IMG/VR virus record: IMGVR_UViG_2579778538_000002
Strand: one strand, 5' to 3'
Length of the DNA stretch: 33,753 bases
From: a virus
Lineage: Duplodnaviria; Heunggongvirae; Uroviricota; Caudoviricetes
How positions within the stretch are numbered: the first letter of the stretch is position 1; the number at the start of each line of letters is the position of its first letter. The translations under genes and the position numbers were made by a program. Below, in pieces: positions 9,695 through 29,911 of this stretch. The notes beneath the pieces are model-generated. The model searched no databases, was not told the origin of the DNA, and worked only from the letters and a program-made list of their open reading frames with translations.

Positions 9695-11121
9695 CAGTTG
9701 CCCCCTTTCAGGGTTAACAGGTATTCCGAGGTGATCTCAGTCTCAAACGTCAGTCGCTCCAGCGGCGGTGGTGGCGTATATTTGTAGCTCAGCAACAGGT
9801 GCCCGGCGGCCAGCTCCGTCTCCGGATTGCGGGCCGGATCAAACCAGCAACGGAAGCCCAGTACCGCACCATCACCAGTCATTTTGCGACCGTAGGCGTT
9901 GACCGACTCCGTCAGTGCATCAATCAGCGCCTGAGTAATCGGCATGTCGATGTACTGCTGGCTGAAATAACGAATGGACTCGTTGATCACATCACCGGTG
10001 CGGCGAACGTTCTCAAAGTTACGCATATGGGTGACCGTTGGCCATGCTGCCGTCCGGTTACCCCACAGACGAAGGCCGCTGCCGTAACTGCTGAATACCG
10101 TGGTGATCCCCTGTTCGTTAAGCAGGTTCACCTCACTCTGCGGGTCATCAATCATCGCGGACAGCTGGCGCTCCACGCCGGTGATCCCCAGAATCTCCTG
10201 ATTGGAGGATGACCACCAGTAGCCCTTGTCCAGATCGACTCTGGCACGCAGACCTGCTGCACGCTGGCTGAGCGGCTCCAGACGCTCTGTGTTTGTCACC
10301 GGGTCATATACCTTCACATGCGGATAGCACAGACGGACGCGGTCGGAGCTGGTATTGAAGTTGATGGTGCCTTCCGGGCCACGACCTGCCAGAGCCTGTG
10401 CAAAGGTGGTACCGACAGGCGCATCAATGTAGGTTACCGCGCCCAGCTTCTCTGCCATGGCGATAAGCTCAACTGCGACACTCTTCTGGGTGCAGAACAC
10501 CGGCGCAATCAGAATTTTGGCGAAATAGCCGTACAGGTTGAAGCTGTCGTTAAGCAGCTTCATGCCGGTTCGGTTTCCGGCGCTGTTCACCCCGCCGATG
10601 ATGTCCGCCGCAGTCACCTTCGACGGGTCCGCGTACTCATAGCTCACCTTCACGCTGCCACCGGCCTCAATAGCCTTGCCCAGGTTCGTGAGCACACCCG
10701 CCTGCGCATCAACACGGTAGTCCGTGTTCGCCGTGTGGGTGGTGCTGCCTTCACTGTTTTTCACCACCACATTAGCGACAACCGGATGCGCCAGTCTGGC
10801 CTGCCCTGTCGATTTGTCAAAGGTAACCACCTCATCCTCGATCGCCGTTTTATGTTTCGCCGGGTCGAGGACGTTAATGACCAGAACGGTGCCTGCACCA
10901 TGGTCATAAATCGCATCCAGCGCCTGCGGAATGGTAAAGCCGGTGAACTGGCTGCCAAATGCCGCTGCGTCTTTCTCAGACAGGCACTGTACCAGCGTAT
11001 TGACATCCCCCATCGGGGCGGTACCAATCAGGCCAATAACGGCAGATTTCACCGTTTTAACCGGGCGGGCACCGTTTTCCACCTCAATGGTTTCGGGACC
11101 ATGCAGATAGTTAGCTGCCAT
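9694..11121 (-). CDS. contractile tail sheath protein (Mu gpL-like)
   Basis: 475 aa, size and position of Mu L / P2 FI sheath proteins. Confidence 0.85.
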   Translation of the reverse strand: MAANYLHGPETIEVENGARPVKTVKSAVIGLIGTAPMGDVNTLVQCLSEKDAAAFGSQFTGFTIPQALDAIYDHGAGTVLVINVLDPAKHKTAIEDEVVTFDKSTGQARLAHPVVANVVVKNSEGSTTHTANTDYRVDAQAGVLTNLGKAIEAGGSVKVSYEYADPSKVTAADIIGGVNSAGNRTGMKLLNDSFNLYGYFAKILIAPVFCTQKSVAVELIAMAEKLGAVTYIDAPVGTTFAQALAGRGPEGTINFNTSSDRVRLCYPHVKVYDPVTNTERLEPLSQRAAGLRARVDLDKGYWWSSSNQEILGITGVERQLSAMIDDPQSEVNLLNEQGITTVFSSYGSGLRLWGNRTAAWPTVTHMRNFENVRRTGDVINESIRYFSQQYIDMPITQALIDALTESVNAYGRKMTGDGAVLGFRCWFDPARNPETELAAGHLLLSYKYTPPPPLERLTFETEITSEYLLTLKGGN

Positions 11122-21826: not shown

Positions 21827-22177
21827 TTAAAGCCCCATCGCAACAGCCAGGCAGACCGCTGCAACAATCAGTGCACGGCGGATTAACGCAGCAGAAAACA
21901 CCAGGTGAAGGCCGGTCTGTACCGGGAAACGCCCTTCAGCCATCAGCCTGTCGTCATGTTTCAGGTACTGACCGGGACGGGCTTTGGGGAAGAGCGAACG
22001 GTCAAGCCAGTAACCCAGCACTGCTGCCAGCGTGATGAGTGCCAGCTTGTAGATCACAACAGGCAGCTGCTGTGGTGAGACCAGAGCGATGGTGCCCAGC
22101 AACAGCACTGAGGTCAGCAGCCAGCCGCTGAGGCGAGGTTTTTTAACAGGGGGAATGAATTTTTTCAGGTTTTTCAT
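21827..22177 (-). CDS. putative holin / small multi-TMD membrane protein
   Basis: Start moved to ATG at 22177 (AAGGAG 7 nt upstream); 116 aa with about three hydrophobic segments; first gene of lysis cassette directly upstream of the endolysin. Confidence 0.5.
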   Translation of the reverse strand: MKNLKKFIPPVKKPRLSGWLLTSVLLLGTIALVSPQQLPVVIYKLALITLAAVLGYWLDRSLFPKARPGQYLKHDDRLMAEGRFPVQTGLHLVFSAALIRRALIVAAVCLAVAMGL

Positions 22178-22196
22178 GTGTGTCTCCTTATCTGGT

Positions 22197-22235
22197 GGAG
22201 ACAGCATCACAAATACAGGGCGCGAAGGATTTTAA
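22197..22235 (-). promoter_or_regulatory. candidate activator-dependent late promoter upstream of the lysis cassette (same tripartite motif as upstream of gene I)
   Basis: Minus strand reads TTAAAATC-N9-CTGTATTT-N6-CTGTCTCC, ending about 20 nt before the holin ATG; in the divergent intergenic region 22178-22307. Confidence 0.4.
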
Positions 22236-22307
22236 AGCGCGTTAAGAGAGCCGGGGATACGGGATGTGCAGGATAAACGATGAATTATTCACAGAGGAGA
22301 ATACGAT

Positions 22308-23036
22308 ATGACGCAGACACTGAATCCGGTCATCACTGTCACCGTGTCCGGTCCTGTGGGCAGCGGTAAAAGTTACGTACTGGCGCGAATAGAGGAAGTG
22401 GTGAAACAGGAATTCGGAAACAGCGTCATTGTCGACGCCGCAGACGTGGACGGTGAGCGCCGTATGAGTGGGGATGATCTGAGCACATGGCAGAAACCAC
22501 GGGCTGGCACAGTGATCAGGCTGGAGGAATACACGGGACAGGGCCTGTTGTCATACGGCGAGGAGCGTATCTGTCGGACGAATGAGCTGCTGGATGTTAT
22601 ATGCCCCACGGGCCGGCAACCCTGGATACTGCCCGATGCACTGCATGCCACCATTGCGGCACTGATGACAGTTTACGATCAGGAGCTGCTCATGAAGGAG
22701 TTACGTAAACTCACTGGTCAGTCAACAGAATGTTGTTCGTCCCCGAAGTACGGCAAACAGGAACACATCCCGATTAACCAGCCTCCCCGGTTCTTCGACG
22801 AATACCTTCTGACACCGGAAAATAAAGCTGAGCATGAAGAGATCAAAGCGGCGTTGTTCCGGGAAATCAGGAAGATTGCTGAAATGCAACTGGAGGGCGG
22901 GCTGGACAGAGTGATGGCGAGAGGAGAATGGGCATCGCTGTTTGAAAGAGTTTCCCCGGAATTACTTCCCCTCGCACTGGCTATCGGGATTATGCAGACA
23001 GCGGATAAACCTCACTTACGTTCATTAAACACGTAA
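22308..23036 (+). CDS. P-loop NTPase, kinase-like (Walker A GPVGSGKS at residues 15-22), unknown function
   Basis: 242 aa with strong Shine-Dalgarno (GAGGAG) before ATG; N-terminal strand-P-loop-helix arrangement VITVTVSGPVGSGKSYVLARIEE and candidate Walker B SVIVDAAD; transcribed divergently from the late operon. Confidence 0.6.
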   Translation: MTQTLNPVITVTVSGPVGSGKSYVLARIEEVVKQEFGNSVIVDAADVDGERRMSGDDLSTWQKPRAGTVIRLEEYTGQGLLSYGEERICRTNELLDVICPTGRQPWILPDALHATIAALMTVYDQELLMKELRKLTGQSTECCSSPKYGKQEHIPINQPPRFFDEYLLTPENKAEHEEIKAALFREIRKIAEMQLEGGLDRVMARGEWASLFERVSPELLPLALAIGIMQTADKPHLRSLNT

Positions 23037-23416
23037 CGCATAATCCGGGATACGCATTCAGCGATGACTGCATTTTCACCGGTTTTTACTGCATCCAGAA
23101 GTGACTCTTTAAATGGTACGGGCCGGGGCTGCAGAAAGGTCGGCATGGCATTGAGCAGACAGAGCGTTTTTTCCGTGAGGACGACATCAGCCGCTCCCAC
23201 AGCCAGCAACTGAGAGTAACGAATATAGCTGTTATCCCGAAGCCATATCAGCGTATCAATAAAACACCGGCACTTTTTCTGGTCGTGATCAACCTGGTCC
23301 GGGATATCGAAAAAACCAGAATAAATCAAAACCTGAGGTGCCGGATGCGTGTTCAGTAATCGGCAGAATATTTTGCCGGTGAGTACATAAAAATCATCAT
23401 TTAAGGAGTGCATCAT
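23012..23416 (-). CDS. hypothetical protein (134 aa)
   Basis: ORF convergent with the P-loop gene (25-bp 3' overlap) and head-to-head with the 71-aa gene; AT-richer than the phage core; coding status uncertain. Confidence 0.4.
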   Translation of the reverse strand: MMHSLNDDFYVLTGKIFCRLLNTHPAPQVLIYSGFFDIPDQVDHDQKKCRCFIDTLIWLRDNSYIRYSQLLAVGAADVVLTEKTLCLLNAMPTFLQPRPVPFKESLLDAVKTGENAVIAECVSRIMRYVFNERK

Positions 23417-23630
23417 GAATCCCCGATTAACGTTAACAGAACATCAGCGCCGTGCTGAAGCAGTGAACAATGTTCTGGAAGATATTATCCGGTTATACCG
23501 CGGAGAACTGAGTGTCTGTCGTGCCGCTTTTCATTTTCAGGGAATACAAAAGCAGTTTGATACTTCTGTTTTTGCAGAAGGTATTACTTATGCCCTGGAC
23601 CGGATAAGGTCAGAAAATCGCCCCGGATAA
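23415..23630 (+). CDS. hypothetical protein (71 aa)
   Basis: ATG preceded by AAGGAG with 6-nt spacing; no recognisable motifs. Confidence 0.45.
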   Translation: MNPRLTLTEHQRRAEAVNNVLEDIIRLYRGELSVCRAAFHFQGIQKQFDTSVFAEGITYALDRIRSENRPG

Positions 23631-23820
23631 TCCCTAAACCACATTAACAGAAATCCCGCCATCCCTGCCGCATCATGAAAGAACGACCAGCCCGGCACCC
23701 GAAAGCCGGGCTGGTCATCGCCCCACAGGAATGCGCTGTGAGCCGACCAAGGTTCAGTCAGTCTCGCGAGACCTGACCAGACTGCCATATTTTTTAATAA
23801 TTGTAAAAGGCTTGCAGATT

Positions 23821-24585
23821 ATGAAAATGCAGACATTACCCATCGTGCCGTGGATTGGTGGCAAACGCCGCCTTGCAAAACACATTCTGCCGCTGTTTCC
23901 GGCGCATGAATGTTATGTGGAGCCGTTTTGTGGGGCAGCAGCGCTCTATTTTCTTAAGACACCCGGCAAGATCGAAGTCATCAATGATATCAACGGTGAA
24001 CTGGTGAATCTGTACCGGGTGGTAAAGCATCACCTGGAAGAATTTGTCCGCCAGTTCAAATGGGCGCTGGTCAGCCGTCAGATCTACAAATGGCTGCAGA
24101 TCACCCCGGAAGAAACACTGACGGATATCCAGCGTGCGGCACGGTTCTACTACCTTCAGAAGCAGGCGTTTGGCGGCAAGGTGGCAGAGCACAGCTTCGG
24201 TACCTCCACCACATCCCCGCCACGCTTCAACCTGCTACGTATTGAAGAAGAACTGTCAGCGGCACACCTGCGGCTTTCCAGAACAGTCATAGAACACATG
24301 GACTGGCAACAGTGCATTGAGCGTTATGATCGTCCGCACACGCTGTTCTACTGCGACCCACCGTACCTGGGTACGGAAGGCTATGGTGTGGATTTTCCTG
24401 AAGGGAACTACTCGCGGCTGGCAGAGCTGGCCCGGTGCATCAGAGGAAAAATGATAATTTCGGTGAACGACATCCCGCAGATGCGCGAGGTGTTCACTGG
24501 ACTGAACATACAGACAGTGAATATCAACTACAGTCTGGCGGGTAAACCCACGCCGCGCCGTGAACTGCTAATCTGCAACTTCTGA
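23821..24585 (+). CDS. DNA N6-adenine methyltransferase, Dam-like (D12 class), orphan
   Basis: N-terminal AdoMet-binding region WIGGKRR...YVEPFCGAAALYF and catalytic motif DPPY (FYCDPPYLGTEGYG) as in E. coli Dam; start set at internal ATG 23821 (MKMQTLPIV...). No restriction endonuclease candidate adjacent. Confidence 0.85.
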   Translation: MKMQTLPIVPWIGGKRRLAKHILPLFPAHECYVEPFCGAAALYFLKTPGKIEVINDINGELVNLYRVVKHHLEEFVRQFKWALVSRQIYKWLQITPEETLTDIQRAARFYYLQKQAFGGKVAEHSFGTSTTSPPRFNLLRIEEELSAAHLRLSRTVIEHMDWQQCIERYDRPHTLFYCDPPYLGTEGYGVDFPEGNYSRLAELARCIRGKMIISVNDIPQMREVFTGLNIQTVNINYSLAGKPTPRRELLICNF

Positions 24586-24616
24586 AACAAAACCGGAAAG
24601 CACAATGCTTTCCGGT
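24581..24616 (-). terminator. candidate intrinsic terminator downstream of the repressor gene (hairpin also abuts the Dam stop)
   Basis: 10-11 bp perfect stem ACCGGAAAGC-ACAAT-GCTTTCCGGT (about 24592-24616), followed on the minus strand by TTTGTTTC; no U-tract on the plus side. Confidence 0.45.
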
Positions 24617-24701
24617 AAACCAAACAACTTCCACTATGTCACTGGCGATGTTTTCTGAAAGCATCCAGATCAACCACCTGTCCTTTGTGTCCGGGTCAGT
24701 A

Positions 24702-25058
24702 TCAGCCTGCGATTTTTCCTGGTTTTGGCTGAGTATAGAATCGCCCAATCTCAAGAAATGAGCGTTGTTGGTCTGGTGTCATGTCGTCAAAAGTATCTAT
24801 TAGTTTTTGTTTTTCTGGGGAAATTTGATTCTGGTTTCTAGTCATACCATCTGTGCTCATTCCAGTGAGCAACCAATTTACATCAACATTAAACTCTTGA
24901 TGCATCTTTAACAGAAACTCCCCTCCAGGCATCGCCTTTCCATTTTCAATCTGACTGATACCACCATTAGAAATACCTAAACGAGCTGCAAATTCTCTCT
25001 GGTTCAACCCTGCTTTCTTCCTCACAGAAATAACGCGCTCTCCTATATCTTTGCTCAT
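24702..25058 (-). CDS. prophage repressor, XRE-family HTH (functional analogue of Mu c)
   Basis: N-terminal helix-turn-helix LNQREFAARLGISNGGISQIENGK; transcribed divergently from the early operon; start codon lies inside an operator half-site. Confidence 0.8.
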   Translation of the reverse strand: MSKDIGERVISVRKKAGLNQREFAARLGISNGGISQIENGKAMPGGEFLLKMHQEFNVDVNWLLTGMSTDGMTRNQNQISPEKQKLIDTFDDMTPDQQRSFLEIGRFYTQPKPGKIAG

Positions 25059-25104
25059 AAAAGTGAATCTCTATCTTGATATGCTCATAATTATGAGCAA
25101 TAAT
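25052..25104. promoter_or_regulatory. operator/early promoter region: perfect 18-bp palindrome TGCTCATAATTATGAGCA (25082-25099) plus a third half-site TGCTCATAA (25052-25060)
   Basis: The palindrome exactly fills the 17-bp spacer between a candidate -35 TTGATA (25076-25081) and -10 AATAAT (25099-25104) pointing into the early operon; the extra half-site overlaps the repressor start codon. Confidence 0.6.
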
Positions 25105-25151
25105 CTAACACATATAAGGCAAACATCATTGCATCAACAAAGGAGACAACG

Positions 25152-25340
25152 ATGACTGCAGAACAAGTCAAAGCTCTCTTCCGCCAGCGCGGGATCACTT
25201 TCACCCGCTGGGCAGAAGAAAACGGCTACAACCGCAATGAGGTATACCGCGTTCTCAACGGGCAGACCAAAGCCCGTTACGGTAAATCCCATGAAATCGC
25301 CGTGAAGTTGGGACTGAAATCAACAGCTCAGGCGGCCTAA
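25152..25340 (+). CDS. small DNA-binding early regulator (Cro/Ner functional analogue)
   Basis: 62 aa, first gene of the early operon, AAGGAG Shine-Dalgarno; HTH-like segment FTRWAEENGYNRNEVYRVLNGQ. Confidence 0.6.
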   Translation: MTAEQVKALFRQRGITFTRWAEENGYNRNEVYRVLNGQTKARYGKSHEIAVKLGLKSTAQAA

Positions 25341-25392
25341 ATATTTTGAGTCTTTGTAAAAGGTTATCACATATCGCAAAAGAGGTATGCAG

Positions 25393-25701
25393 ATGAGTAA
25401 GACGAATGTTTCAAGCTCCGGCAGTCGCATCCTCCGGGTACTCAAAGCGCTGCGCGGTCATGCCCTGAACGGTATTTCTAACGGTGAACTGGCGACAGCA
25501 CTGCACGAGTCACCGGCAAACATCAACCGGGCACTCAACACCCTCATTGAAGAAGGGCTGGCTCTGAAACTGGAGAACGGACGTTTTGCACCGGGCATCC
25601 AGTTACTGCAGATCGCCATGGCCCACAGTAACGAGATGGCACGTGCACAGGATCGTATTAACGAAATTAACCAACGTGTCATTTCAGGTAGTCGTTTGTA
25701 A
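25393..25701 (+). CDS. winged-helix DNA-binding protein (IclR/MarR-like N-terminal HTH)
   Basis: ILRVLKALRGHALNGISNGELATALHESPANINRALNTLIEEGL resembles a winged-helix HTH; start set at ATG 25393 (Shine-Dalgarno AGAGG). Confidence 0.5.
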   Translation: MSKTNVSSSGSRILRVLKALRGHALNGISNGELATALHESPANINRALNTLIEEGLALKLENGRFAPGIQLLQIAMAHSNEMARAQDRINEINQRVISGSRL

Positions 25702-25711
25702 GGAGTAATCA

Positions 25712-26632
25712 ATGGGACGTACCAAATCACCGATTAACACTGAACTGAACGCCGATGTACCGCTGTCGGATGATCTCAACGTCAGCCTGAATGCCATGAC
25801 ACAGCATCGCATGGAGATCATGCAGCAGTTTGGTGATGGACTGCCTTATGAACGTGAACGCATCGTTCACGAAGCACGTTTTTATATGGCGCAGAGTGCT
25901 GAATCTATGTTGGAAGCGGGTAAGCGGCTGATCATCTTAAAAGAAAATGAACCGCATGGTGATTTCACAAATATTCTGGAAAACGACCTCGGATTAGCAC
26001 CACAGGTAGCTCGTCGCATGATGCAGGCCAGCGTGAAATTTCTCGGCAATGGAGATGAACAGCCAAAACGCTCAGCGCTGAGCGTTTTGGGAAAAACCAA
26101 GTTATATGAACTGATGGTTCTGGATGACGAAGAACTCGACGCATTAGCTGATGGTGGAACCGTCGCCGGTGCAACGCTTGATGATATTGATCGCATGACC
26201 AGCCGCGAACTGAAGGCCGCCCTGCGTGAAGCGCGCGAAACCAACGCAGCTCAGCAACAGGTGCTTGCCGGAAAGGACGAAAAAATCAACGAACTGGCCA
26301 CAAAACTGGAGAAGAAATCGCGCCTGCAACCTCCGCCGCCAGACGAAGAACTGAAAAAATTGCGGGCGGAAGTGACGGCATTAGCGGTTGAGGCCGAATC
26401 GGCTATCGCCGTCCGGCTGTCCAGTGTTTTTGAGACCCTGTGTGAATACTGCACCAAAAACATGATCGATACCCCCAGAGATTTCATGGCCGGTCTGGTC
26501 TGCCAGATTGAACGCAGTGTTCATGCATTACGTGAGACGTTTGACCTTGAGGCCGCTCCATCGGGTAACGATGCCCCCGCCTGGCTGACCGAACCGGAAC
26601 CTGAAATCAACCGACCGGAGGATATGCAGTAA
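25712..26632 (+). CDS. hypothetical early protein, coiled-coil with Pro-rich linker
   Basis: 306 aa, between the regulators and the transposase; central heptad-like region and QPPPPDEE linker. Confidence 0.5.
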   Translation: MGRTKSPINTELNADVPLSDDLNVSLNAMTQHRMEIMQQFGDGLPYERERIVHEARFYMAQSAESMLEAGKRLIILKENEPHGDFTNILENDLGLAPQVARRMMQASVKFLGNGDEQPKRSALSVLGKTKLYELMVLDDEELDALADGGTVAGATLDDIDRMTSRELKAALREARETNAAQQQVLAGKDEKINELATKLEKKSRLQPPPPDEELKKLRAEVTALAVEAESAIAVRLSSVFETLCEYCTKNMIDTPRDFMAGLVCQIERSVHALRETFDLEAAPSGNDAPAWLTEPEPEINRPEDMQ

Positions 26633-26949
26633 TGAATACGAATAACACACAAAATACCCTGATGGACAGCCCGGAGGCACTGGGGCACGCACTGTGTAAT
26701 CTGCTGCCGGAGATGGTGCAGGGTTTCCGCGTGGTGACCCCTTCCGGTGAAATCTGCGTACCCGCACAGGAGACGCACCCGTTTGTACTGACGATGGAGG
26801 TGATGCTGATGCAGCAGATAAGACGTCTGCAGAATCAGTCAGCATTACGCCCGGTAGTTGCACCGCAACCGGTAAATACCGTGGTGAAAACCTGCGATGG
26901 CGAAACACTGTGCGACCTCGCCAGAAAAATTGCCGCCAGAATCGGATAA
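26632..26949 (+). CDS. hypothetical early protein (105 aa)
   Basis: ATGA overlap with upstream gene; no recognisable motifs. Confidence 0.45.
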   Translation: MNTNNTQNTLMDSPEALGHALCNLLPEMVQGFRVVTPSGEICVPAQETHPFVLTMEVMLMQQIRRLQNQSALRPVVAPQPVNTVVKTCDGETLCDLARKIAARIG

Positions 26950-26964
26950 CAGGGAAGACAAGCT

Positions 26965-28734
26965 ATGACCCCGGCACTGACTGAAAAACTGGTTGAAACA
27001 GCCCGCGCGGCACGTGACGCGGGGCATGGTAAACGCGGTGCAATATACGACGCTGCCTGTGCTGAACTTGGCATGTCCCGCGCCACTCTGCTGCGCAGGC
27101 TGAAGGAGGTATCTGTGACTGATAAACGCAAAAAACGCGCCGATGCCGGGCGCAGCGCCCTGACCCGCGACGAAGCCGCGCTGATATCTGCCACACTGCG
27201 TGAGGCCACCCGCAAGAACGGTAAGCGTCTCTATTCCATCGCAGATGCAGTGGAAACCCTGCGGGCTAACGGCTTTATCACCGCAGGCAGAACAGATGAA
27301 ACCACCAGTGAGTTTTTCCCGTTGTCTGAAGATGCCATCAGCCGTGCTCTGCGTAACTATGGCCTGCACCCGGAACAACTGGATGCCCCTGCACCACATA
27401 CCGAAGTGGCCAGTCTGCATCCCAATCATGTCTGGCAGATTGACGCCTCACTCTGCACGCTTTACTACCTGAGCAATGGACATAAAGGGCTGCAGGTGAT
27501 GGACAGCGCGAAGTTCTACAAGAACAAGCCCGCTAACCTTGCCCGTATCGCCAGTGACCGCGTGTGGAGTTACGAGATTACCGACCATGCCAGCGGCTGG
27601 ATTTACGTTGAGTATGTGACGGGCGCGGAATCAGGTGAGAACCTGTGTTCTGTGCTTATCAACGCCATGCAGGAGCGTGGCGGCGCAGACGTGCTGCACG
27701 GCGTGCCGAAAATACTCTATCTCGACCCCGGCTCGGCAAACACCGCGGGTATGACGAAAAACATGTGCCGCTCACTGGGCATCGACCTGATAGCGCACAA
27801 GCCGCATAACGCCCGCGCCACCGGACAGGTGGAAAAGGCGCGTGACATTATCGAACGCAAGCTGGAGCCGGGTCTGAAGTTCCGGCCGGTTCACAGTCTG
27901 GAAGAACTCAACGCGCTGGCCGCGAAATGGCGCAGCCACTTTAACGCCACGGCTGTTCACAGCCGCCACGGTAAAACCCGCACGGATATCTGGCTGAAGA
28001 TTACTGCTGAGCAGCTGAAAAAAGCGCCTTCCGTTGAGGTATGTCGTGAACTGGCTGTGGCGGCACCAGAACTCCGCAAAGTCACGCCAAAACTTCGTGT
28101 CTCGTTCCGGGGCACTGAATTTGACGTATCAACGGTACCGGGCGTACTGGTTGGTGAAAAACTGATGATTACCCGTAACCCATGGCGCAGCGATGTGGCA
28201 CAGGTGGTTCTGACCGGTGAGGACGGCCACGAGACGTTCTTCCTGGTCGAAGAGGTCAGAAAGAACGAGTTTGGCTTTGCTGAAGGCGCGGCGGTATTTG
28301 GCGAAAGTTACAAAGCCCTGCCGGAAACCCCGGCACAGATGGCGGCAAAAGAAACCGAAGCGCTGGTTACCGGTACAGACAACGCCGCAGATGCAGCCGC
28401 CGCACGCAAGGCGAAGGCGCTGCCGTTCGGCGGGCGGCTTGACCCGTATAAACATATCGACGACACCACACTTCCGGCCTATATGCCGAAGCGTGGTCAG
28501 GCCTCTGACGTACGCGGGCCGCGCACTGAACAACGTCCCATGACTCATGTGGAGGCCGCGAAAGCCCTGCGCGATAAGTTCAGCGCCGACGGCCTTACCT
28601 GGACGCCGGAACATTACCGCCAGTTAACGGCACAGTACCCGGACGGCGTACCGGAAGCCGCACTGGATGAAGTCATGGCCACGCTGACCACACCGGCCCG
28701 CAGCAGTGTTATCAGCATTGTTAACGGCAACTGA
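26965..28734 (+). CDS. DDE transposase (Mu A-type, short B3/D3112-like form)
   Basis: 589 aa; N-terminal HTH region, then DDE core with candidate catalytic residues in HVWQIDAS, YLDPGSAN and TGQVEKAR; followed by the AAA+ B-type gene as in transposable phages. Confidence 0.85.
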   Translation: MTPALTEKLVETARAARDAGHGKRGAIYDAACAELGMSRATLLRRLKEVSVTDKRKKRADAGRSALTRDEAALISATLREATRKNGKRLYSIADAVETLRANGFITAGRTDETTSEFFPLSEDAISRALRNYGLHPEQLDAPAPHTEVASLHPNHVWQIDASLCTLYYLSNGHKGLQVMDSAKFYKNKPANLARIASDRVWSYEITDHASGWIYVEYVTGAESGENLCSVLINAMQERGGADVLHGVPKILYLDPGSANTAGMTKNMCRSLGIDLIAHKPHNARATGQVEKARDIIERKLEPGLKFRPVHSLEELNALAAKWRSHFNATAVHSRHGKTRTDIWLKITAEQLKKAPSVEVCRELAVAAPELRKVTPKLRVSFRGTEFDVSTVPGVLVGEKLMITRNPWRSDVAQVVLTGEDGHETFFLVEEVRKNEFGFAEGAAVFGESYKALPETPAQMAAKETEALVTGTDNAADAAAARKAKALPFGGRLDPYKHIDDTTLPAYMPKRGQASDVRGPRTEQRPMTHVEAAKALRDKFSADGLTWTPEHYRQLTAQYPDGVPEAALDEVMATLTTPARSSVISIVNGN

Positions 28735-28744
28735 GGAGGGAAAC

Positions 28745-29911
28745 ATGCTGGTACTGAAGCAGCAACTGAAAGAGGCCCGTATTCCACAGGCGGTGGTGGC
28801 GAGAGCTGTCGATGTTTCTGAGGCCACGCTGGCCCAGATTGTGAATCATAACGCGTGGCCCCGCACCAGCCCCGGAGAAGTGCGCCGGCGTCTTGCGTCC
28901 TGGCTGGAAAGTCAGGGGATTGATACAACGAAGAGTTTTGATGCTGTACAGGGCGCGGCCACGCCCCGTACAGCGGGTACCACAGATAAAACGAGCCTCA
29001 GTGAGGAAGAGAATATGTTACTCAAAAAACAGGTGTTATTTCCAGCAACCAAAAAAGCGTTTGGTCTTTTCCGTGACCCGTTCGCCGACGAAGCCATGCA
29101 GGGTTCTGATGATGTGTTCACCACCCCGGACATTCGCTACGTGCGTGAGGCGCTGTACCAGACAGCCCGTCATGGTGGGTTTATGGCCGTCATCGGTGAG
29201 TCCGGTGCGGGTAAATCCACGCTGCGCCGCGACCTGACTGAACGTATCAACCGCGAGAATGCGCCGGTAATTGTTATCGAGCCATACATCATCGCTATGG
29301 AAGACAACGATGTGAAAGGGAAAACCCTGAAGGCAGCAGCTATTGCCGAAGCCATTATCAGTACCATCGCACCACTGGAAAGCATCAGACGCAGTCAGGA
29401 CGCCCGTTTTCGCCAGTTGCATCGCGTCCTGAAAGACAGCAGCCAGGCGGGGTTCAGCCACGTTCTGGTGATTGAGGAGGCCCACAGTCTGCCCATTCCG
29501 ACACTGAAACACCTCAAACGCTTTTTTGAGCTGGAGTCCGGTTTCAAAAAACTGCTGTCCATCGTGCTGATTGGCCAGCCGGAACTGGCGACAAAACTGT
29601 CTGAACGCAATATGGAAGTCCGTGAAGTCGTTCAGCGCTGTGAGGTGGTCGAACTTCTGCCTCTGGACAATAACCTTGAAGAATTTCTGACGTTCAAACT
29701 GCAACGGGCCGGTAAACAGCTGACGGACATTATGGACGCCGGTGCAGTGGATGCCATACGTGCCCGCCTGAGCAATCCGGGAAGTCACCGTAAAAATATG
29801 GTCAGCCTGCTGTATCCGCTGGCCGTCAGTAACCTGGTAATAGCCGCCATGAATCTGGCCGCTGAAATCGGGGTTCCACAGGTCAACGCTGACGTTGTCA
29901 AAGGGGTTTAA
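28745..29911 (+). CDS. DNA transposition ATPase (Mu B-like AAA+ protein)
   Basis: Walker A GESGAGKST, Walker B-like HVLVIEEAH; start set at ATG 28745 after GAGGAGGG; immediately downstream of the transposase. Confidence 0.8.
   Translation: MLVLKQQLKEARIPQAVVARAVDVSEATLAQIVNHNAWPRTSPGEVRRRLASWLESQGIDTTKSFDAVQGAATPRTAGTTDKTSLSEEENMLLKKQVLFPATKKAFGLFRDPFADEAMQGSDDVFTTPDIRYVREALYQTARHGGFMAVIGESGAGKSTLRRDLTERINRENAPVIVIEPYIIAMEDNDVKGKTLKAAAIAEAIISTIAPLESIRRSQDARFRQLHRVLKDSSQAGFSHVLVIEEAHSLPIPTLKHLKRFFELESGFKKLLSIVLIGQPELATKLSERNMEVREVVQRCEVVELLPLDNNLEEFLTFKLQRAGKQLTDIMDAGAVDAIRARLSNPGSHRKNMVSLLYPLAVSNLVIAAMNLAAEIGVPQVNADVVKGV

Follow-up and report, generated by a model that had tools for sequence, protein, structure and literature searches.

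The repressor locus and its early promoter

We analysed, with sequence-based evidence throughout, the early-control region of a tailed phage (Caudoviricetes; IMG/VR record IMGVR_UViG_2579778538_000002), represented by a stretch of 33,753 nucleotides that we call the window, and in particular its positions 24,702 to 25,104. Two divergent genes mark the locus. The minus strand carries, at 24702-25058, the gene of a putative immunity repressor of 118 amino acids (aa), which consists of an N-terminal XRE/HTH_3 helix-turn-helix (HTH) domain, a linker and two C-terminal helices; the plus strand carries, at 25152-25340, the first early gene, which encodes a 62-aa Ner-like protein of the BcepMu gp16 family. 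Our subject is a set of three candidate operators of the repressor, here called O1, O2 and O3, which lie between the two genes, over the repressor start codon and inside the repressor gene, respectively.

O1 (25082-25099), which we propose as the primary operator, is a perfect 18-bp palindrome, TGCTCATAATTATGAGCA, formed by TGCTCATAA and TTATGAGCA as a 9+9 inverted repeat. A consensus scan placed it within an early promoter on the plus strand (Pe), between a -35 hexamer TTGATA (25076-25081) and a -10 hexamer AATAAT (25099-25104) whose first base is the last base of O1. Pe matches the consensus at 10 of 12 positions with a 17-nt spacer; it was the sole promoter-like site found in 24500-25500 and the best of five sigma-70 promoter matches across 22000-27500. 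At the sequence level the palindrome thus overlaps the lytic promoter, O1 filling the spacer of Pe. A perfect palindrome between these two hexamers is what the original prediction had described, and upon re-reading the sequence we found all of its coordinates to be correct, with the spacer at 17 nt.

The 9-mer TGCTCATAA is found without mismatch at three places in the window, all inside 48 bp: the two arms of O1, and a copy at 25052-25060 that overlaps the repressor start codon (CAT, 25056-25058). This third copy had been interpreted as an extra half-site over the repressor ATG. The exact match is indeed there, but it is better read as the intact side of a degenerate full operator, O2 (25052-25069; TGCTCATAAAAGTGAATC, TGCTCA-TAAAAG-TGAatc), which covers the start codon. 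O2 and O1 are equal at 12 of 18 positions, comprising all nine of the left arm and the TGA of the right arm. The O2 dyad lies 30 bp from the O1 dyad, and the two sites flank the -35 hexamer.

The DNA-binding domain of the repressor resembles those of known phage repressors. The HTH_3 match is clear (Pfam, E = 4.6e-15), searches against PDB sequences returned the 434 repressor (E = 3e-8) and P22 C2 (E = 1e-5), and Foldseek gave TM-scores of 0.87-0.91 (target-normalised) to the 434 and P22 C2 domains. Neither Pfam nor NCBIfam revealed an S24/LexA-type autocleavage domain or any other peptidase domain in the protein. In a single-sequence AlphaFold2 model of the monomer (mean predicted local distance difference test score 73.7), the DNA-binding domain is followed by a flexible linker and two helices.

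From the surrounding gene content and gene order, the locus is identified as the region in which a Mu-like transposable prophage, of the BcepMu-like kind, encodes immunity and early control. The Ner-like gene is followed by an IclR-like HTH gene, a DUF3102 gene and a DDE transposase gene, whose product is a 589-aa protein with the Pfam domain rve; the divergent repressor and ner-like genes therefore precede the transposase gene, as seen both in the layout of open reading frames (ORFs) and in the annotation of Escherichia phage PhiKM. The layout of repressor, Ner-like and transposase genes is the same as that of BcepMu (gp17/gp16) and B3 (ORF18/ORF17).

Palindromes and repressors across immunity types

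The comparison covered six heteroimmune Escherichia coli prophages, 80 viral contigs found through the Ner-like protein and four loci found through the repressor. The 87 loci (designated L with a number) contained 58 distinct upstream sequences, in which at least 16 operator types were delimited by eye. Since viral contigs within a type are not phylogenetically independent, we counted types rather than loci; in distant types, some repressor start codons are uncertain. As a cognate versus non-cognate control, every operator was scored against every locus.

At most loci, the nATAATC -10 element and the leader up to the Ner-like start codon were conserved, whereas the spacer, the -35 hexamer and the repressor gene were not. 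Each type had its own palindrome in the 17-18-nt spacer: GGTGAGGTAATCTGCACC in type B, GAGAACAATAGTTCTC in type C, and ATACACGTTTGTGTAT, GGTTGAAAATTTTCTACC, TGTCTAATTTTTTAGACA, TCCCATTTTTGGGA, TTCCCGTTTGGGAA and AGTGTAATAATTACACT in further types. The spacers of BcepMu (GGTAATCAAACGCATACC) and B3 (GGTGCAATATTTGGCACC) follow the same pattern. Despite non-homologous surroundings, nearly all types keep a TTG-type -35 hexamer at the appropriate distance. When the palindrome changes, the repressor's recognition helix changes too: the five repressors of type A, to which the window belongs, have an identical SNGGISQIE core (SNGGISQIE(N/S/R)GK) and TGCTCA...TGAGCA arms. Such co-variation is what one would look for in a repressor and its operator, and would be hard to explain otherwise.

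The second site also recurs. Of the 16 loci measured, 14 had their best cognate operator copy to the left of O1 at a distance of 29-33 bp, at or over the start of the repressor gene. Within the O2 region, the cognate operator outscored every non-cognate one in 16 of 28 loci, and in most of the remaining loci it was beaten or tied by at most two operators. The comparative evidence across at least 16 types supports what had been proposed from the window alone, namely a repressor operator in the early-promoter spacer and a second site at the repressor start. We conclude that O1 very probably serves as the principal site bound by the immunity repressor, with a weaker partner over the repressor start codon.

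The same comparison bears on the possibility that the palindrome is a product of chance in an AT-rich spacer, and the repeat at the start codon a coincidence of coding (ATGAGCA, Met-Ser). Some numbers leave room for it: counted with at most one mismatch, the 9-mer occurs 12 times against 5.7 in shuffled sequences, only about a twofold excess, and the ~0.13 perfect 18-bp palindromes expected per window (33753/4^9, uniform composition) is not a negligible figure; 2 perfect palindromes of at least 18 bp are observed in 33.7 kb. However, exact matches to the arms, TGCTCA-N6-TGAGCA, are limited to O1 and 24854-24871 (O3; ~0.002 expected, 33753/4^12), at least 16 non-homologous spacers are palindromic at the same place, and the cognate second site keeps its 29-33-bp distance in 14 of 16 loci. 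Chance is the least credible of the explanations that we considered.

Two other sequences in the window resemble the operators. At 24491-24508, in the 3' end of the methylase gene, TGTTCA-N6-TGAACA shows the operator arms altered by a single symmetric change; as the sequence is identical in the heteroimmune loci L007 and L008, this repressor probably does not use it. The sequence at 10677-10694 (TGCCCAGGTTCGTGAGCA, one mismatch), in the tail-sheath gene region, is within chance expectation and was rejected as an operator.

Another candidate reader of the palindrome, instead of or besides the repressor, is the Ner-like protein, itself a small HTH protein encoded beside it; in lambdoid phages, CI and Cro share operators. 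The protein belongs to TIGR04111 (BcepMu_gp16, E = 3e-28) and phrog_925, a family annotated as "Ner-like antirepressor" in Pseudomonas phage records, and its match to Pfam HTH_35 (Ner/Nlp; E = 0.003, 17.9 bits) falls under the cut-off of 25. Against this role, the Ner-like protein of the loci L012, L017 and L021 has 100% identity to that of the window but is encoded next to the B-type palindrome GGTGAGGTAATCTGCACC. Since identical Ner-like proteins accompany different palindromes, we think it very unlikely that this protein, which the original prediction had proposed to test for binding, reads O1. Moreover, the palindrome tracks the recognition helix of the repressor, whereas the sequence co-conserved with the Ner-like protein comprises the -10 hexamer and the leader (25099-25151), where, judging from this conservation, its own target would most likely lie.

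The conserved early leader (25105-25151, plus strand) includes a Shine-Dalgarno sequence, AAGGAG, and is common to most heteroimmune types. It contains GCAA-N6-TTGC at 25119-25132, which reads ACAA-N6-TTGT in L051/L022-type relatives, with both sides changed; this element could be bound by the Ner-like protein or form a small hairpin. Predicted folding of the leader RNA was unremarkable (z = -1.8), and Rfam gave no match anywhere in the window.

The operators might also constitute a Mu-style enhancer read by the transposase, given that this phage is likewise transposable. In Mu, O1-O2 is the enhancer, and the repressor is homologous to the N-terminus of MuA. Here, however, the repressor is an XRE HTH protein and not a MuA-like winged helix. 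In addition, A-, B- and C-type phages have unrelated operators, yet their transposases are 90-94% identical over residues 1-83; a transposase-read enhancer is therefore scarcely more plausible than chance as an account of these sites.

One heteroimmune locus deserves separate mention for its annotation. In the C-type locus L010 (1473-1502), from a prophage of E. coli O6:H16 M9682-C1, the annotated 153-aa repressor ORF spans the early promoter. Its -35 hexamer (TTGACA) and palindrome (GAGAACAATAGTTCTC) are located inside the annotated coding sequence, the annotated start abuts the -10 hexamer, and CTCATTGACAATGAG, another palindrome, overlaps the -35. This repressor's start codon may be mis-annotated.

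The intragenic site, the specificity cassette and a proposed mechanism

O3 was absent from the original prediction. It is the second exact match to the arm pattern, lies within the repressor ORF at 24854-24871 (TGCTCATTCCAGTGAGCA, TGCTCA-N6-TGAGCA), 228 bp from O1, has two perfect 6-bp arms and provides the codons for LLTGMS. The A-type genes in which it can be followed come from E. coli, Serratia, Symbiopectobacterium and two viral contigs; the repressors of L002 and L003 have ~64% amino-acid identity to that of the window over the best tblastn segment. In all five genes the O3 arms are invariant at 12 of 12 positions, and no other stretch of the gene is invariant in this way with a 12/12 match. 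Where substitutions occur at the site, they affect the central 6 bp or a position immediately outside an arm. Within the arms, all four third-codon positions are invariant, compared with 22% of third-codon positions in the A-type genes overall, a result with a chance of ~0.002 (estimated as 0.22^4). This pattern of substitution indicates that O3 is conserved beyond coding needs, at the DNA level.

An internal translation start at the in-frame ATG within O3 was also considered and rejected: GTG (Val) takes its place in three of the four remaining A-type genes, and we did not find a Shine-Dalgarno sequence.

Intragenic cognate sites were identified in other types as well, 175-277 bp from O1 and at differing codon positions. 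They include GTGCAGATAACTGCAC in type B (approximately codons 44-49, from converted coordinates), GGTGAAAAATTTTCTACC in type E (16 of 18 matches to O1, approximately codons 73-79) and GTGACATTTTTGGGAC in type G (approximately codons 73-79), and sites were likewise found in types C (L084 only), D, I, K and O. In the intragenic region, the cognate operator was strictly the best in 12 of 28 loci, which represent 9 of the 16 types. When only the first representative of each type was taken, it ranked strictly first among ~25 operators in 6 of 16 (binomial p ~3e-5).

It is possible, though we judge it doubtful, that the switch uses O1 and O2 only, and that O3 is a by-product of coding for the WLLTG motif or a remnant of cassette exchange. 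O3 does overlap a conserved motif, WLLTG(M/V)S, and in types G and E half of the intragenic site falls in a conserved coding block. Two null results point in the same direction and count against a simple loop. Cognate versus non-cognate scoring did not detect a cognate intragenic site in 7 of the 16 types, and the O1-O3 distances (175-277 bp) showed no helical phasing (Rayleigh p ~0.6, n = 10 types; p = 0.4-0.8 over the tests of O1-O3 or O2-O3), so that a rigid loop is unsupported. Other observations argue for a function in DNA. The invariance of the four third-codon positions in five diverged genes stands against the 22% background, the variation at O3 is restricted to a presumably uncontacted centre and the base just outside an arm, and the strictly first ranks in six types would be hard to obtain by chance. 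Furthermore, the intragenic sites are found at differing codons between types, and therefore a single protein motif cannot account for them.

O3 lies near one end of a segment that appears to be exchanged as a unit. We delimited a putative immunity-specificity cassette of ~275 bp (24827-25099), which comprises repressor codons 1 to ~78 together with O3, O2, the -35 hexamer and O1. By blastn, this is the segment that lacks homology to heteroimmune relatives, and it contains nothing besides the DNA-binding domain, the operators and the -35 hexamer. Homology on the left (~94% with L006 and L008, covering the methylase gene and the last ~40 repressor codons) ends at 24816-24826 with respect to L006, L007 and L008, and at 24869, inside O3, with respect to L080; on the right it resumes at 25089-25100, at or a few bases ahead of the -10 hexamer. 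The repressor tail encoded at 24702-24826, SPEKQ.L.DAFD.MTPEQRRAILEVGK...PKPSKFAG, is common to at least seven types with unrelated DNA-binding domains (L006, L008, L011, L031, L045, L065 and L080), and could be an oligomerisation module or the target of an inducer. These boundaries suggest that the cassette has been exchanged between phages that share the repressor tail and the module of -10 hexamer, leader and Ner-like gene.

In L080, at 2150-2240 of that locus, corresponding to 24854-24871 of the window, the recombination junction with window-type sequence falls inside O3 and leaves one A-type arm (TGCTCAT) as a remnant; the DNA-binding domain of L080 is F-type.

On a broader formulation our confidence is evenly balanced: the immunity determinant of BcepMu/B3-like phages would be a self-contained cassette of ~275 bp grafted by recombination, and O3 would be a working operator, acting through a loop of ~200-230 bp or as a roadblock. 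The DNA-binding segment would then be bracketed by O1 and by O3, the latter near the domain boundary, and would sit between a universal oligomerisation tail and the -10/Ner module.

The roadblock function could even be the principal one, O3 acting with O2 and O1 in the lysogen mainly against plus-strand read-through from the methylase cluster rather than by looping. Both the methylase gene (23731-24585) and the early operon lie on the plus strand. A terminator-like hairpin at 24592-24616, on the minus strand, has 11 pairs and a T-run on that strand only; it lies 86 nt past the repressor stop codon and is probably the end of the repressor transcript. We saw no obvious terminator that would keep plus-strand transcripts of the methylase cluster from continuing, antisense to the repressor gene, towards the early operon. 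This reading is purely inferential, however, and in L009, L010 and L011 other genes, on the opposite strand, are located to the left of the repressor, of which L011 still has an intragenic site. We consider it unlikely that O3 serves mainly as a roadblock.

Overall, we consider it probable that the immunity repressor of a PhiKM-type, BcepMu-like transposable prophage uses the three sites as its operators, in the following way. A dimer of the 118-aa repressor would bind O1, which has an AT-rich centre, and occupy the whole 17-nt spacer of Pe. RNA polymerase would thus be kept off the promoter, and the leftmost early operon, from the Ner-like gene through the transposase gene onward, would stay silent. 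A second dimer would cooperatively fill the weaker O2 and cover the translation start of the repressor. Because a promoter for the repressor gene can only be located to the right of 25058, occupation of O1 and O2 would also limit the synthesis of the repressor, which amounts to negative autoregulation. O3 would most likely add occupancy, either through a loop to O1/O2 mediated by the shared two-helix tail or as a roadblock.

Some results, in addition to the null results on O3, weigh against this mechanism or parts of it. A standard scan did not find a minus-strand promoter upstream of the repressor start, in 25059-27500. A permissive scan gave two weak candidates on the minus strand: an extended -10, TGT-TAGATT, at 25110-25102, back-to-back with the -10 hexamer of Pe, and CATAAT at 25095-25090, inside O1. 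Either candidate would place the transcription start in or beside O1, which fits negative autoregulation and does not prove it. A leaderless arrangement of the repressor gene was judged unconvincing by eye. We infer autoregulation, including its sign and mechanism, from the geometry of the sites. O2, with only one good arm, could be very weak when alone. Finally, the support for oligomerisation through the tail comes from a weak resemblance (E ~3e-4 and 3e-3) to SinR, an HTH regulator with a helical-hook tail that forms tetramers. SinR is the best full-length match to the repressor in both sequence and fold: phmmer aligned residues 5-106 with SinR 2-103 (E = 2.7e-4), BLASTP with a manually entered SinR sequence gave 31% identity over 108 columns, and the top Foldseek match was 1b0n_A (E = 3e-3). 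Pfam SinI did not match the repressor, and a tblastn search of the window with the repressor tail (residues 71-118), for a SinI-like antagonist sharing it, returned only the repressor itself.

The phage, related switches and significance

The studied region is 100% identical to Escherichia phage PhiKM (PQ738613.1), whose record is classified in Bcepmuvirus. The 1 kb is present in 593-595 of 5426 complete E. coli genomes (~11%), at 99% identity or more in 390 of them, and these 390 include a genome annotated as O25b:H4-ST131 and a uropathogenic isolate. The repressor ORF is not annotated in the PhiKM GenBank record (record ~29435-29791, corresponding to 24702-25058); at this position the record has only a 41-aa hypothetical ORF (29732-29857), on the opposite strand and partially overlapping. 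In RefSeq E. coli genomes the repressor is named "helix-turn-helix domain-containing protein". Our literature search, made in the searchable library, found no paper on PhiKM, and no published operator analysis for BcepMu- or B3-like phages.

Besides O1, the only perfect palindrome of at least 18 bp in the window is one of 28 bp at 26063-26090 (CCAAAACGCTCAGCGCTGAGCGTTTTGG), inside the DUF3102 ORF (the third early gene) and ~900 bp upstream of the transposase gene. In heteroimmune loci (L010, L030 and others) its centre has changed symmetrically, from CAGCGCTG to CAACGTTG, and the palindrome is kept, which suggests selection on DNA or RNA structure. This element is not immunity-specific.

The logic proposed for the switch, a promoter-occluding operator with autoregulation, is textbook, of the classical 434/P22/lambda kind. 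As in the lambdoid systems of 434 cI and P22 c2, the repressor's N-terminal domain is homologous, the operators are palindromic and, at 18 bp, equal in length to those of P22, they overlap a lytic promoter beside a divergent repressor gene, and specificity is swapped as an immunity module. Unlike in lambdoid phages, the repressor here, with its 118 aa, has no S24 peptidase or RecA-cleavable domain, and the operators are not shared with the Cro analogue. Close to the promoter are two sites, 30 bp apart, instead of three at 23-24 bp; a further one is found within the repressor gene; and the swapped module, of ~275 bp, does not include the C-terminal domain of the repressor or the cro-like gene.

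With Mu (c/Ner), the phage shares its transposable nature, divergent repressor and ner-like genes ahead of the transposase gene, and an early promoter under repressor control. It differs from Mu in having an XRE HTH repressor unrelated to MuA, operators that are not a transposase-read enhancer, and a Ner-like protein of the TIGR04111 gp16 family with a sub-threshold match to HTH_35. B3, Fc02 and BcepMu have the same gene order and a homologous Ner-like protein, and BcepMu and B3 show a palindrome in the pE spacer. In Pseudomonas phage Fc02, RNA-seq has revealed two divergent promoters, pC2 and pE, that overlap in a short intergenic region, and a distal pC1, with no operators described (PMC9936078). 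The repressor of Fc02 is transcribed in lysogens from this distal pC1, whereas we did not find an equivalent in a scan of 22000-27500.

In TP901-1-like phages the topology of three operators is kept while the operator sequences differ, and the distal operator, OD, is located in the lytic-side gene mor (PMC7250872). The arrangement here resembles that of TP901-1 CI (OR, OL and OD) and of lac O1/O2 in having three cognate palindromes, one of them intragenic and a few hundred bp away, and it resembles TP901-1 also in a repressor that lacks a peptidase domain and has helical C-terminal elements. In contrast to both, the distal site is in the repressor's own gene, not in mor or lacZ. SinR of Bacillus subtilis, in turn, has an HTH domain followed by two C-terminal helices, as in this weakly matching repressor, but it is a chromosomal regulator and not a phage repressor, and the window encodes no SinI-like partner.

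What goes a little further than the textbook scheme is limited to the minimal cassette and the intragenic O3. An auxiliary operator in the repressor's own gene, recurring over unrelated operator sequences, is undescribed for this phage group. With O1, O2 and O3 defined, studies of induction and of superinfection immunity, as well as prophage engineering, have testable sites to target. A further product of the comparison across types is a list of at least 16 candidate pairs of repressor and operator on one scaffold (-10 hexamer and leader, and in at least seven of them a common C-terminal tail), which would be useful as orthogonal repressor/promoter parts and as a natural experiment in the co-evolution of HTH domains and their operators.

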